Positions 9,126 through 36,841 of a stretch of 64,000 bases of DNA are shown here, piece after piece. Under the pieces are notes generated by a model. The model was not told where the DNA came from, did no database searches, and saw nothing but the letters and a program-made list of their open reading frames with translations. This stretch comes from Candidatus Woesearchaeota archaeon. Its GTDB lineage: Archaea; Nanobdellota; Nanobdellia; Woesearchaeales; BM511. The translations under genes and the position numbers were made by a program. The stretch lies in NCBI GenBank assembly GCA_002867475.1, contig PKTL01000051.1, forward strand, positions 4,640-68,639, read 5' to 3'. The stretch's first letter is position 1. Each line of letters opens with the position of its first letter.

Positions 9126-9418
9126 GTAAGAAATTGAAAAATTGGAAAGAGATCCCAATCGGAGGACTGATTGTTGAACCTGGAAACAGTAAAGAATACT
9201 TGACAGGAGACTGGAGAACATTTAGACCTGTTCATATTCCTGAGAAATGTATAAATTGCATGATATGCTGGGTGAATTGCCCAGATAGTTCTATTCTTTC
9301 AAAAAATGGGAATTTTGATAAGTTTGATTATGATCATTGTAAAGGATGTGGTATCTGTGCAAACAGTTGTCCAGTGAAAGCTATAGAAATGAAACCAGAG
9401 GTGGATTTTGATGAGTAA
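9122..9418 (+). CDS. porD: pyruvate:ferredoxin oxidoreductase delta subunit (2x[4Fe-4S] ferredoxin)
   Basis: Two CxxCxxCxxxCP clusters (CINCMICWVNCP, CKGCGICANSCP); 4-nt overlap with both neighbours. Confidence 0.8.
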   Translation: MSKKLKNWKEIPIGGLIVEPGNSKEYLTGDWRTFRPVHIPEKCINCMICWVNCPDSSILSKNGNFDKFDYDHCKGCGICANSCPVKAIEMKPEVDFDE

Positions 9419-32790: not shown

Positions 32791-34155
32791 TTAGAATTTA
32801 AACCCTTTAGGCATGCCACCTTTGCCCATTCGTTTCATCATTTTTTCCATGCCTTTCTCACTCATGTCTCCACCTTTGAACATCTTCATCATCTTCTTTG
32901 ATTGTTTATATTGTTTCATTAGGCTTCGTACTTCTGAATCAGGAACTCCAGCACCATTTGCTATTCGTTCAATTCTTGTACCACTAATAATTTCAGGGTC
33001 TTCAAGCTCTTTTTTTGTACATGAATCCATGATGAATTTCCAAACTTCCATTTTTTCCTGCTGGACATCTAATGCTTCTTTAGGTATCTTCATGTTTCCC
33101 ATTCCAGGAATCATATTCATTATCTTGCTCAAAGATCCCATCTTCTTTACAGACTCCATCTGTTCATACATGTCGATAAGATTAAATTCGCCTTTTAGAA
33201 ATTTCTTACCTAAGTCTTTTGCTTTATCTTCATCGATTGCTTCCTTTGCTTTTTCAAGAAGTCCTTCTAAGTCTCCCATTCCAAGAAGCTTACCAACAAA
33301 ACGTTTCGGATCAAACTCTTCTAGGTCATCGATCTTTTCTCCAATACCAATGAAACGAACGCTTGCGCCAGTTACTGAGCAAGCTGCTAGAGCACCACCA
33401 CCTTTAGCACTACCTTCCATCTTTGTGATTATAACACCTGTAATATCGCATTTCTCATGGAACATTAATGCTTGTTTTTCTGTTGCTTGACCGATGTCAG
33501 CACCTACTACAAGGAATGATTCGTCAGGTTTCACAATTTTATTGATGTTATCGATCTCATCGATCAATTCATCATTTAAGCTGTCTCTTCCTGCTGTATC
33601 TATTATTACAACGTCAAACTTGCTTAATTCTTTCTCGTTATCCTTGTATATTTTAGTTGGATCTTTTTGTTTTGGGTCACCAAATACTGGAACATTTATG
33701 CTTTTACCTAATTGTTCTAATTGCTTGAAAGCAGCAGGCCTCCAAGTGTCTGTTGAAATAAGTGCAACTTTTTTTCCTCTTTTTGTAAAGAATTTTGCTA
33801 GTTTTCCTGCAGTTGTTGTTTTACCATTACCAAAAAGTCCAACAAGCATCAACTTGTATGGTTTTTTTGAAAGATCAATCTTATGACCTTCGCCACCAAG
33901 AAAATTTGTAAGCTCTTCATAAACGATATTTACAATATGATCTTTTTTTGATAGACTAGGAATCTTTTCGTCCAAAGCTCTTTCCTTTATCCTTTTTGTC
34001 AATTCAAAAACCATCTTGACATTGACGTCTGATTGCAGTAAGCTTCTTTGGATATCTTTGATTAATTCATTTATGAGTTTCTCATCGACAAATACAGCTT
34101 TAGCTATCTTAGAAAGAGTGTTTTTTAGTGAATCTCCTAGCTTATCTAGTACCAT
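32791..34155 (-). CDS. srp54: signal recognition particle protein SRP54
   Basis: N domain, G domain (GLFGNGKTTTAGKLA, DTAGR) and a Met-rich M domain. Confidence 0.9.
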   Translation of the reverse strand: MVLDKLGDSLKNTLSKIAKAVFVDEKLINELIKDIQRSLLQSDVNVKMVFELTKRIKERALDEKIPSLSKKDHIVNIVYEELTNFLGGEGHKIDLSKKPYKLMLVGLFGNGKTTTAGKLAKFFTKRGKKVALISTDTWRPAAFKQLEQLGKSINVPVFGDPKQKDPTKIYKDNEKELSKFDVVIIDTAGRDSLNDELIDEIDNINKIVKPDESFLVVGADIGQATEKQALMFHEKCDITGVIITKMEGSAKGGGALAACSVTGASVRFIGIGEKIDDLEEFDPKRFVGKLLGMGDLEGLLEKAKEAIDEDKAKDLGKKFLKGEFNLIDMYEQMESVKKMGSLSKIMNMIPGMGNMKIPKEALDVQQEKMEVWKFIMDSCTKKELEDPEIISGTRIERIANGAGVPDSEVRSLMKQYKQSKKMMKMFKGGDMSEKGMEKMMKRMGKGGMPKGFKF

Positions 34156-34229
34156 TGATTGAAAAAGAAAGAAGGGTTATTTATTTAATTATTGGTTTAT
34201 AATAATTAAATGCTTGAATTACTCTCTAA

Positions 34230-34480
34230 TTCATTGTAAAAGTTTTTTCTCTTCTGGTTCTCTCGACGGACGGATTTCCTGAAATTATCATTGTCTATTT
34301 CATCGATCCTCTCTTTATAGTTGCTCCAATCCAGGAAATCGCCCTTTTGATCATCCATCATAACCACGCGTCACTAAAGACCAGATCTATCCCTCTGTCG
34401 AGGCGCTTAACAGAGAGATTTCTGATCTGTTTGTAGAATAATTCTTCGATTGTTTTATGTGTCGTATCTATCATTTTATA
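34230..34480. ncRNA. GC-richer structured intergenic region; candidate ncRNA (possibly SRP RNA-like) of undetermined strand and identity
   Basis: Long-range complementary segments CUCUCGACGG/CUGUCGAGG and AUUUCCUG/CAGGAAAU; GC content well above the genome background; no ORF of 60 aa or more. Confidence 0.25.
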
Positions 34481-34552
34481 TCACCTAAAAAGAATAGGAT
34501 TCTTTTTTCTTTATAAACCTCAAATGACAATGTCCAGTGGGTAAATTGTCCA

Positions 34553-35755
34553 GTGGAAAATTATAAAAAGGAGTTAAATCAAGATTGTATTATGGATTTT
34601 TATACTTTAGATGGATTGAAAGTTGAAGGGAAGAAAGTTATAGTTAGATGTGAATTTAATGTCCCAATTGACAAAGAGGGAAACATCACTGATGATTTCA
34701 GGATAAAGAAAAGTCTTCCGACAATCAAGTATCTTCTTGACAACGGTGCAAAGCAAGTTGTTTTGATGAGCCATCTTGGAAAACCAAAAGGAGTTGTCAT
34801 AGATATCTTGAAGATGAATAGGGTTGCGAGCAGATTGCAGCAATTGCTTGGTGTTGAGGTTATAAAAGTTGATGACTCTGTTGACATAACATTGCCTGAT
34901 TCAAGAATTATTCTTTTAGAAAACCTTAGGTTCAATCCTGGTGAGAAAGAAAACAGGGAGGAGTTTGCAAAAAAGTTAGCTAGTTATGCTGATATTTATG
35001 TTAATGATGCTTTTGGCACATGTCACAGAAGCCATGCGTCAGTTGATGCAATAACCAAATATTTGCCTAGCGTTGCAGGTTTCTTGGTTGAAAAAGAGGT
35101 CGAAATGCTAAGCCTTGAAATTCCTGATAGACCTTTTGTTGCTGTTCTTGGTTGTGCAAAGATTAGCGATAAGATAAAGATGATTGAAAACCTTCTTAGC
35201 AAAGTTGATGTTTTACTTCTTGGTGGAGCGATAGTTTTTACTTTTCTAAAAGCTAAAGGTTTAGAAATTGGTAAAAGCTTGGTTGAGGATGAGCAATTGC
35301 AAACCGCAAAAGATTTGCTCTATAATAGGAAAATTGTTCTACCAACTGATATTGTTGTAAGTAATGAGATTAGTGAAAATAGTAAGAATTGGGTTGTTAA
35401 GGCTGAAAACATTCCTAAAGATGCTATAGGTCTTGATATTGGTCCTGATTCAATTCAACTTTTTTCTAACATGATAAAAACTGGACAGACAATATTTTGG
35501 AATGGACCTGTCGGCGTGTTTGAAGTTCCACCTTATGACAATGGAACTAAAGAACTTGCAAAGATAATCACAAACACCTCTGCTAAAACTATTGTTGGCG
35601 GCGGTGACACTGCTAGCGCTGTTCGTCACATCGGGCTTGATGAAAGGTTCAGCCATGTAAGTACTGGTGGCGGTGCAAGTATTGAGATGATCCAAGGAAA
35701 TGAGCTTCCCGGAATCAAAGCATTGATTGAGAACAAAAAGAATTTTATCCTATGA
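34553..35755 (+). CDS. pgk: phosphoglycerate kinase
   Basis: KVIVRCEFNVP N-terminal motif; GGGASIEMI C-terminal motif. Confidence 0.85.
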   Translation: MENYKKELNQDCIMDFYTLDGLKVEGKKVIVRCEFNVPIDKEGNITDDFRIKKSLPTIKYLLDNGAKQVVLMSHLGKPKGVVIDILKMNRVASRLQQLLGVEVIKVDDSVDITLPDSRIILLENLRFNPGEKENREEFAKKLASYADIYVNDAFGTCHRSHASVDAITKYLPSVAGFLVEKEVEMLSLEIPDRPFVAVLGCAKISDKIKMIENLLSKVDVLLLGGAIVFTFLKAKGLEIGKSLVEDEQLQTAKDLLYNRKIVLPTDIVVSNEISENSKNWVVKAENIPKDAIGLDIGPDSIQLFSNMIKTGQTIFWNGPVGVFEVPPYDNGTKELAKIITNTSAKTIVGGGDTASAVRHIGLDERFSHVSTGGGASIEMIQGNELPGIKALIENKKNFIL

Positions 35756-36250: not shown

Positions 36251-36841
36251 TTAAAGTTTGATAATTCTACCTTTCGGTCCAGGATTCAAAACTATTGTAT
36301 CTCCAATCTTGTCTTTTTTTCCGAAATGCTCATGTAAATGACCACTTAGTGCATAAAGAGGCTTGTAATCTTTTATGAAATCCTTTATGTTCATGTTCCC
36401 AACATTCTTGCCATGGACAATATCTATAGTTGTATTGAAAGGTGGTTGATGCGTTAAAAGGATCAGTTTTTTTGCTTCGACAAGCTCTCTTTGAAAATGT
36501 ACAACAACTTCATCAAATTCTGGATCATCAATAAGAAATCCCCCAGCCCCATATGAGAAAAAAGTTATTCCTTCTATTTCCATCAAATCCTTATGGAAAT
36601 ACTTTACATGCTTTGTTTTCTTGCAGAATTCTTTTAATGTTTCTTCATCCTCATGATTTCCAGGAAGCATCAAAACAGTTTTGCCGATTGTGTCAAGGTC
36701 TTCTAAGATCAGATCTAGTGCGTGCTCAAAAAAAGTCACATCACCAAGACATACCACAAGGTCTGCCTTTTTGGATTTTTCTATAACTTTCATTATATCT
36801 GCCTTGTTTGAGTGGCTGTCTGCAAAAAATAGCACTTTCAT
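36251..36841 (-). CDS. metallophosphoesterase (YfcE-like phosphodiesterase)
   Basis: MKVLFFADSHSN, LGDVT, GNHED motifs. Confidence 0.7.
   Translation of the reverse strand: MKVLFFADSHSNKADIMKVIEKSKKADLVVCLGDVTFFEHALDLILEDLDTIGKTVLMLPGNHEDEETLKEFCKKTKHVKYFHKDLMEIEGITFFSYGAGGFLIDDPEFDEVVVHFQRELVEAKKLILLTHQPPFNTTIDIVHGKNVGNMNIKDFIKDYKPLYALSGHLHEHFGKKDKIGDTIVLNPGPKGRIIKL

Follow-up and report, generated by a model that had tools for sequence, protein, structure and literature searches.

In a 64,000-nucleotide stretch of a Candidatus Woesearchaeota archaeon genome (contig PKTL01000051.1, positions 4,640 to 68,639; hereafter the window), the gap between the genes for SRP54 and phosphoglycerate kinase (pgk) is a small protein-coding operon rather than a structured RNA. 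The minus strand of 34206-34560 very probably forms a self-contained transcription unit of archaeal type for two translationally coupled micro-proteins. The first open reading frame (ORF), ORF1 (34358..34474, minus), recovered by ORF calling and by a family hidden Markov model (HMM), encodes 38 amino acids (aa) plus a stop (MIDTTHKTIEELFYKQIRNLSVKRLDRGIDLVFSDAWL) and belongs to family A, a conserved family of DPANN micro-proteins that lacks annotation and whose genes share a distinctive, conserved motif in their promoters. The second, ORF2 (34206..34361, minus; 51 aa from the ATG at 34361), identified by ORF calling and BLASTP, belongs to family B, a second, less conserved family that accompanies family A in several lineages. 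An initial annotation made from the sequence alone had favored a structured RNA and had named a small protein pair as an alternative; homologues of both micro-ORF products support the pair, and the RNA reading fails.

The case rests first on family A. With the two ORFs fused as query, HMMER run exhaustively on 1.84 billion cluster representatives returned four homologues of ORF1 of 38-52 aa, and a follow-up profile search enlarged the family to at least 41 protein clusters with cores of 36-55 aa. The homologues include P0005-P0044, and the organism names attached to members are Woesearchaeota and Nanoarchaeota only. The family HMM recognizes ORF1 with E=8e-19. The consensus, MVDLSxKTIKELFYKQIxxLTxKT(linker)SFDxQFSDRW[LIM], is conserved in two blocks, of which the N-terminal one (..KTIKELFYKQI..LT.K) is a helix and the C-terminal one (SFDYQFSDRW[LIM]) an aromatic/acidic motif. 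In ORF1 the block [HNT]KTI..LF.[KQ]Q reads HKTIEELFYKQI, and the block F[DE].QFSD.W[LIM] appears as FSDAWL. Most of the 41 clusters terminate 0-4 residues past W[LIM], and over-long entries mostly stem from start codons called too far upstream, with the Shine-Dalgarno (SD) region translated as ..EVI... Identity by codon position across 11 genes on independent contigs is 0.64/0.74/0.39, and the invariant serine of the FSD motif is encoded by AGT, AGC, TCT or TCA depending on the lineage, with repeated switches between AGY and TCN. Third positions are thus the least conserved and serine changes its codon family, which argues for selection on the protein.

The JGI gene caller missed ORF1 both in the window genome and in a related strain, so that an annotation gap is corrected here for a family without an entry in the domain libraries. 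ORF1, ORF2 and their fusion match nothing in Pfam, NCBIfam or PADLOC; a type II toxin-antitoxin pair was rejected as an identity on the lack of any toxin or antitoxin match in these three libraries, and the genuine pair present in a related strain (see below) is a separate insertion. PHROGs gave one sub-threshold match of unknown function (E=0.029) and a profile search of the PDB gave nothing below E=0.35. With the fused ORFs, a word-indexed protein search returned the query alone, and peptide-pattern scans of metagenome and viral contigs produced no confirmed relatives. Comparison of the region with 80 SRP54 loci by tblastn, blastn and nhmmer, followed by the family HMM against all 179 loci, found no SRP54-adjacent relative outside the species, and literature searches on the motif and on DPANN small proteins yielded nothing relevant. 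One 43-aa member, P0006 (contig L167:275-406), bears the JGI name 'putative NIF3 family GTP cyclohydrolase 1 type 2', which neither its sequence nor Pfam supports.

AlphaFold2, given a 34-sequence family-A alignment, predicts one helix (residues 6-27) and an unstructured C-terminal motif at a mean predicted local distance difference test (pLDDT) score of 73.5. A helix joined to a short docking motif suggests the architecture of a small adaptor. A PIP-box, Qxx[LIM]xx[FWY][FWYL], was also considered for the motif; the spacing of QFSDRW[LIM] does not match and this reading was dropped. DPANN genomes are very small, and the family retains its sequence, its ribosome-binding site and its upstream motif across lineages that are about 40-60% identical, so the micro-protein is likely to be important.

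The SD sequence GGTGAT (34480..34485, minus) lies 5 nucleotides (nt) upstream of the ORF1 ATG, and (GA)GGTGAT followed by 5 nt and ATG occurs in every family-A lineage examined. A TATA box of the ORF1-ORF2 unit, TTTATAAA, is placed by sequence at 34510..34517 (minus), about 35 nt upstream of the ATG. Beyond it a motif scan located two minus-strand copies of CACTGGACA, a proximal one at 34531..34539, which is followed by a T, 12 nt and the TATA box, and a distal one at 34547..34555, which abuts the probable TATA box of pgk. Every gene A examined is preceded by one to three copies of the motif or of a close variant: the motif itself occurs in the window, L083, L165, L167, L168, L169-172, L173, L175 and L176-179, and variants with one mismatch occur in L164 and L174, against a random expectation of 0.08 per kb. 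A TATA-like box can be placed after the motif in the window, L083, L165, L167, L169-172, L173, L174, L175 and L176-179, and in nine other lineages such boxes hold the same position relative to the motif. In 11 of 12 examined contexts, including the window, 12-14 nt separate the last copy from the TATA box downstream of it. A further copy at 9368 lies inside a coding sequence, has no TATA box and is judged a chance occurrence.

In other lineages the 5' leader is 100-220 nt long and holds a GC-rich hairpin with CCUCC-type runs, for instance GGCAGGACCCCCTCCC...GTCCTGCC (L165:3925-3975, L173:2885-2925, L176:130-170). These runs could pair with the ribosome-binding site GAGGTGAT. The leader in the window is short and has no CCUCC hairpin.

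The stop codon of ORF1 and the start codon of ORF2 share the tetranucleotide ATGA (34358..34361, minus), a translational-coupling junction that places ORF2 in the -1 frame. The overlapping minus-strand ORFs of the initial annotation are confirmed, with 38 and 51-53 codons, the range for ORF2 depending on its start: a second ATG is available at 34358, and a GTG at 34367 gives a 53-codon version. BLASTP aligns ORF2 with a micro-ORF in L173 at 52% identity over 31 aa (E=1e-10). That homologue and one in L168 match each other with E=1e-8, so that L168 is linked to the window only transitively. The L168 homologue, once more in the -1 frame, shares an identical ATGA overlap with gene A and has F[VL]DW..Y.[KE]R in common with ORF2, whereas in L173 it lies two micro-ORFs downstream of A and has a GGGGTGA ribosome-binding site of its own. 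Family B, defined from four sequences, is characterized by the motif F[LVM]DW[SDN].Y[KQ][EK][RH][IL][DN] in a gene beside a family-A gene, and ORF2 shows both features. Its identity by codon position is 0.46/0.62/0.34, and conservation covers codons 1-40, to about 34243, but not the last 11.

The ATGA junction is also present in L083, L168 and L169-172, and L174 has TGATG instead. In L169-172 and L174 the ORF that overlaps gene A by ATGA or TGATG is a different one (..EEGFMQGYLSA / ..HFIDEYAQEAYL), with related ORFs in L167 and L168, and in L165 and L176 gene A is solitary and followed by a T-run or a hairpin. Since A plus a coupled micro-ORF is found in several lineages, the layout is recurrent, with A constant and its partner variable. 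Additional micro-ORF families beside A, in varied order and with either their own SD or an overlapping start, are seen at L167:453-557, L168:218-361, L174:3111-3224, L169:3126-3251 and L173:3234-3326; DPANN genomes seem to harbor a cluster of several 30-47-aa genes at the family-A site. The unit resembles the translationally coupled small-ORF operons of archaea and bacteria that are joined by AUGA, in which an SD-led cistron feeds the next, and here too the arrangement is conserved in several lineages. It differs from them in that both products are micro-proteins (38 and 51 aa) of families absent from Pfam, NCBIfam, PHROGs, PADLOC and the PDB.

The ORF2 product is recorded on three contigs, L081 and L082, which belong to the same genome as the window (99.98% identity), and L083, which comes from a related strain whose SRP54 gene is, in its 5' part, 90.3% identical in DNA and 98.7% in protein. 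In this comparison of two strains only, a 240-nt block (34243-34482 against L083:774-1013) is 95.8% identical, beginning at the ORF1 ATG and ending at the stop of ORF2 in L083. The ORF1 protein is 100% identical between the strains despite five nucleotide changes in four events, namely three third-position substitutions and one AGT->TCT serine switch. The 5' leader of L083 contains 47 inserted nt and, at L083:1091-1619, between ORF2 and SRP54 (window position ~34200), there is an insertion of about 600 nt with a DUF7557 antitoxin-like gene and a PemK/MazF toxin gene. The upstream neighbor in this strain is an unrelated gene of 195+ aa with weak similarity to the MjaI restriction enzyme instead of pgk. 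The locus appears to be a hotspot of insertion and rearrangement.

An open frame on the plus strand (34233-34433, about 63 codons, hydrophobic) spans both ORFs in antisense; in L083 it is a 71-aa ORF initiated by ATG. It was rejected as a gene, as it has no start codon in the window and all four of its substitution events relative to L083 are non-synonymous, and it probably arises from codon usage in the sense genes.

Several points count against a unit of two coupled micro-proteins. ORF1 is a divergent member of its family: it has I29 and V32 at positions that are F and Q, respectively, in over 90% of members. Homologues of ORF2 are found in just two other lineages, and a profile search of called proteins with ORF2 returned the query only. 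Relative to L083, ORF2 has two non-synonymous changes and one synonymous change, and its last 11 codons are unconstrained, since the L083 version terminates at KRKK*. A single-sequence AlphaFold model of A fused to B has a pLDDT of 51.7 and is uninformative. Synonymous divergence from L083 is 4/~42 sites in ORF1 plus ORF2 compared with 41.5/102 in SRP54 (Fisher p=1.5e-4), which is beyond what selection on the protein alone would produce. Finally, we infer the expression of ORF1-ORF2 from the sequence, and likewise biochemical function, the interaction of A with B and the identity of the regulator.

Under the proposed two-protein operon, transcription would start some 25 nt past the TATA box (34510-34517). 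Ribosomes would bind GGTGAT, translate the 38 codons of ORF1 and, at its UGA, possibly reinitiate on the overlapping AUG of ORF2 to make the 51-aa product. Protein A would probably act as a small adaptor or regulator, its helix pairing with a partner, possibly protein B, and its C-terminal motif docking on another protein. A dedicated DNA-binding factor probably recognizes the CACTGGACA repeats and sets the level of expression; a site 12-14 nt upstream of the TATA box is in an activator-type position. The same repeats would also overlap the TFB recognition element (BRE)/TATA region of the divergent pgk promoter.

The leading candidate for such a factor is an Orc1/Cdc6-type winged-helix protein, because the motif resembles the mini origin recognition box (mini-ORB). 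The Orc1/Cdc6 site of Pyrococcus abyssi is TTCCAGTGGAACT, and in ORB and mini-ORB elements the core motifs 'TTCC' and 'GAA' are perfectly conserved (PMC1904270). On the plus strand the distal copy in the window reads TGTCCAGTGGAAA (34547-34559) and has 10 consecutive bases in common with the P. abyssi element; TCCAGTGGAA is common to both and the window repeats are likewise clustered. The distal copy (GTCCAGTGGAAA) has 'TCC' and 'GAA' but a G for the first T of 'TTCC', the proximal copy (GTCCAGTGGGTA) and most homologous loci are without the 'GAA' half, and copies of CACTGGACA are mostly direct rather than inverted and keep a fixed distance to the TATA box. Unlike ORB elements, the repeats in the window also have no cdc6 near them, and no homologue of cdc6 or sua5 is found within the 64 kb. 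Elsewhere, cdc6 ends directly before the repeats in L165/L166 and L177, and Sua5/YrdC lies downstream of the micro-ORFs in L165, L168, L169-172 and L176. The order cdc6 - family A - Sua5/YrdC - metallophosphoesterase recurs in L165:2812-5400 and in L176/L177; a metallophosphoesterase with 26% identity to the L165 one is encoded in the window at 36251-36841.

That families A and B form an Orc1/Cdc6-controlled module tied to replication or the cell cycle in DPANN archaea is a speculative proposal with low odds of being right. If it were true, the CACTGGACA repeats would be mini-ORB-type Orc1 sites serving as a promoter element, the ancestral position of the genes would be cdc6 - A(-B) - sua5 beside an origin, and the docking partner of the SFDYQFSDRW[LIM] peptide would be a factor of replication or of translation modification. 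In the main reading the repeats are a promoter element to which an Orc1-type protein may bind, and the link to Orc1/Cdc6 stands as a lead rather than a finding. The mini-ORB-like motif together with the recurrent cdc6/Sua5 neighbors makes this lead concrete and testable in a group whose origins and gene regulation are experimentally unstudied.

Among the competing explanations, the one that survives best accepts the coding capacity and adds a nucleotide-level function, either as a dual-function small RNA (sRNA) or as a cis-acting leader of SRP54. It would account for the low synonymous divergence, which per gene is 0.13 for ORF1 and 0.055 for ORF2 against 0.41 for SRP54, that is, 3-7 times lower in the micro-ORFs, and the unit does lie directly upstream of SRP54 on the same strand. 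Yet the toxin-antitoxin pair separates ORF2 from SRP54 in L083, the downstream gene in other lineages is Sua5/YrdC, a glycosyltransferase or another gene and not SRP54, and conserved helices were not found. Moreover, the first ~120 nt of the aligned SRP54 block (a 37-nt leader and about 28 codons) contain only two substitutions, leaving aside three mismatches at the junction of the toxin-antitoxin insertion. As the start of SRP54 is similarly conserved, a recent recombination tract explains the low divergence equally well. The low divergence may reflect either such a tract, in which the tail of ORF2 was replaced at the toxin-antitoxin insertion, or an extra nucleotide-level constraint, and a second function for the transcript is on balance improbable.

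The position before SRP54 also recalls regulatory peptides. SecM-secA, MifM-yidC2 and VemP-secDF2 are pairs of an upstream regulatory or arrest peptide and a secretion gene. Like these peptides, ORF1 is short, has a conserved C-terminal peptide at or near its stop and lies directly upstream of a gene for protein targeting. In contrast to them, family A precedes SRP54 in the window lineage only, with the toxin-antitoxin pair intervening in L083, and gene A has its own promoter and elsewhere precedes Sua5/YrdC or other genes.

The initial annotation had also considered a frameshifted gene of about 90 aa, of which ORF1 and ORF2 would be the halves, joined either in a pseudogene or by programmed -1 frameshifting. 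ORF2 indeed begins within the last codons of ORF1, in the -1 frame, and in L164 (positions 368-526 of a 541-nt contig) the family-A ORF reads through in the same frame to ..QKPTALDW*, a sequence similar to the ..QKGDFLDW at the start of ORF2; the coverage of this contig is just 1.4x, and the continuation is either a real fusion or an assembly error. Against this reading, most family-A clusters stop shortly after W[LIM], gene A stands alone in L165 and L176, gene B in L173 is a separate gene that follows two genes after A and has a ribosome-binding site of its own, and at least four lineages preserve the ATGA overlap. No slippery heptamer (X XXY YYZ) occurs in the overlap itself (GCGTGGTTATGA), and upstream of its GTG the ORF2 frame stays open for just two codons. 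With the fused query, neither the word-indexed search of 5.8 billion proteins nor HMMER on the 1.84 billion representatives found a homologue of about 90 aa, and a split ~90-aa gene is very unlikely.

Another possibility is a replication origin between ORF1 and pgk, with the CACTGGACA/TGTCCAGTGG repeats as its ORB elements. Beyond the 10-base identity with the P. abyssi mini-ORB, this has in its favor that the repeats directly follow cdc6 in L165 and L177 and that cdc6 genes usually adjoin archaeal origins (PMC2643942). The cumulative GC skew of the window also has its minimum near 34 kb, and the flanking genes are divergent. In the window, however, there are only two copies, both direct, in an intergenic spacer of 118 nt that has neither an inverted partner for them nor a long AT-rich region for unwinding, and a single mini-ORB does not suffice for Cdc6 binding in vivo in Pyrococcus (PMC1904270). 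The GC skew follows the orientation of the genes and shows other, comparably deep minima, and a fixed spacing of 12-14 nt to a TATA box is the behavior of a promoter element. With neither cdc6 nor sua5 in the window, two direct repeats and an undistinctive skew minimum, the repeats are read as a promoter element, and an origin at this site is extremely unlikely.

There remains the structured noncoding RNA (ncRNA), be it the signal recognition particle (SRP) RNA, RNase P RNA, a C/D-box sRNA or a new family in 34200-34500, with the small ORFs as accidents. The initial annotation drew it from real features, which turn out to be ordinary. As it had stated, the stretch between SRP54 and pgk is free of ORFs of 60 aa or more, and the GC-rich strings that it quoted are present at 34260, 34364 and 34391. 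GC reaches 0.42-0.45 locally over 34250-34450, but over 34200-34500 it is 0.355, compared with 0.356 in SRP54, 0.37 in pgk and 0.32 on average in the window, and the composition is therefore of the ordinary coding type. The conserved block 34243-34482 has a GC content of 0.388, which 8% of all 240-nt windows in the 64 kb equal or exceed. More generally, a "gap" of slightly raised GC content in an AT-rich genome can simply be a small coding gene that annotation has missed.

The long-range complementary segments are likewise present on the plus strand. CTCGACGG (34262) pairs with CTGTCGAG (34395) over 8 bp with one G-U, and ATTTCCTG (34274) pairs perfectly with CAGGAAAT (34332) in a helix that extends to 9 bp. 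Dinucleotide shuffles produce as much: 23% contain a perfect stem of at least 9 bp, stems of at least 8 bp number 1 observed against a shuffle mean of 0.87, and the longest stem with G-U allowed, 12 bp, is reached by 14%. The minimum free energy (MFE) z-scores against shuffles are -0.86 on the plus strand and -1.64 on the minus strand. Neither helix is kept in homologous loci, only 2-4 of the 8-9 positions pairing in L168 and L173 with no compensatory changes, and in L083, the sole close relative, the arms are unsubstituted and thus carry no covariation information.

The SRP RNA had been suggested on account of the adjacent SRP54 gene, and the likeness to Rfam's Archaea_SRP family is limited to that neighborhood and a size of about 300 nt. 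Rfam yields no family at gathering score in the 64 kb, and at E<=10 the interval 34100-34620 gives six weak matches, none to Archaea_SRP or RNase P. The canonical helix-8 motifs are absent, the initial annotation having likewise not found them, the GC content is only 0.355 and the helices are not conserved. The best local match is SNORD111 (21.9 bits against a cutoff of 46, E=0.25). A C/D-box sRNA was considered and rejected: a terminal stem TTTCCTG/CAGGAAA is present, but there is no 5' C box (RUGAUGA) or 3' D box (CUGA) on either strand, and the covariance-model score is under half of the cutoff. The 240-nt block does exceed the SRP54 coding sequence in identity to L083, but conservation across the family follows codon positions, amino-acid motifs and serine codon-family switches, and no similar sequence lies beside SRP54 in 160 related loci. 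With Rfam, helix conservation and the clear protein homologues, three of the tests proposed with the RNA reading itself, all pointing away from it, an ncRNA has next to no probability left and is essentially refuted.

On the flanks of the unit, SRP54 (32791-34155, minus) is assigned by a Pfam match, as is pgk on the plus strand at the other side of the gap. The nearest SRP54 genes among 185,579 species genomes come from Woesearchaeota/Nanoarchaeota metagenome-assembled genomes at an identity of at most 71%, and a metagenome scan with SRP54 found no nearer genome. A scan for tRNA and tmRNA genes found none in the 64 kb of this archaeal genome. Between the stop of ORF2 and the ATG of SRP54, an AT-rich spacer (34156..34205, minus) contains a TATA-like TTATTATAAA and a T-run. 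On the pgk side, a probable TATA box, ATTATAAAA (34560..34568, plus), is divergent from ORF1. ENA calls pgk with 387 aa from the ATG at 34593, whereas JGI and a mechanical ORF list start it at the GTG at 34553, giving 400 aa; because this GTG precedes the probable TATA box, the ATG at 34593 is the more plausible start.

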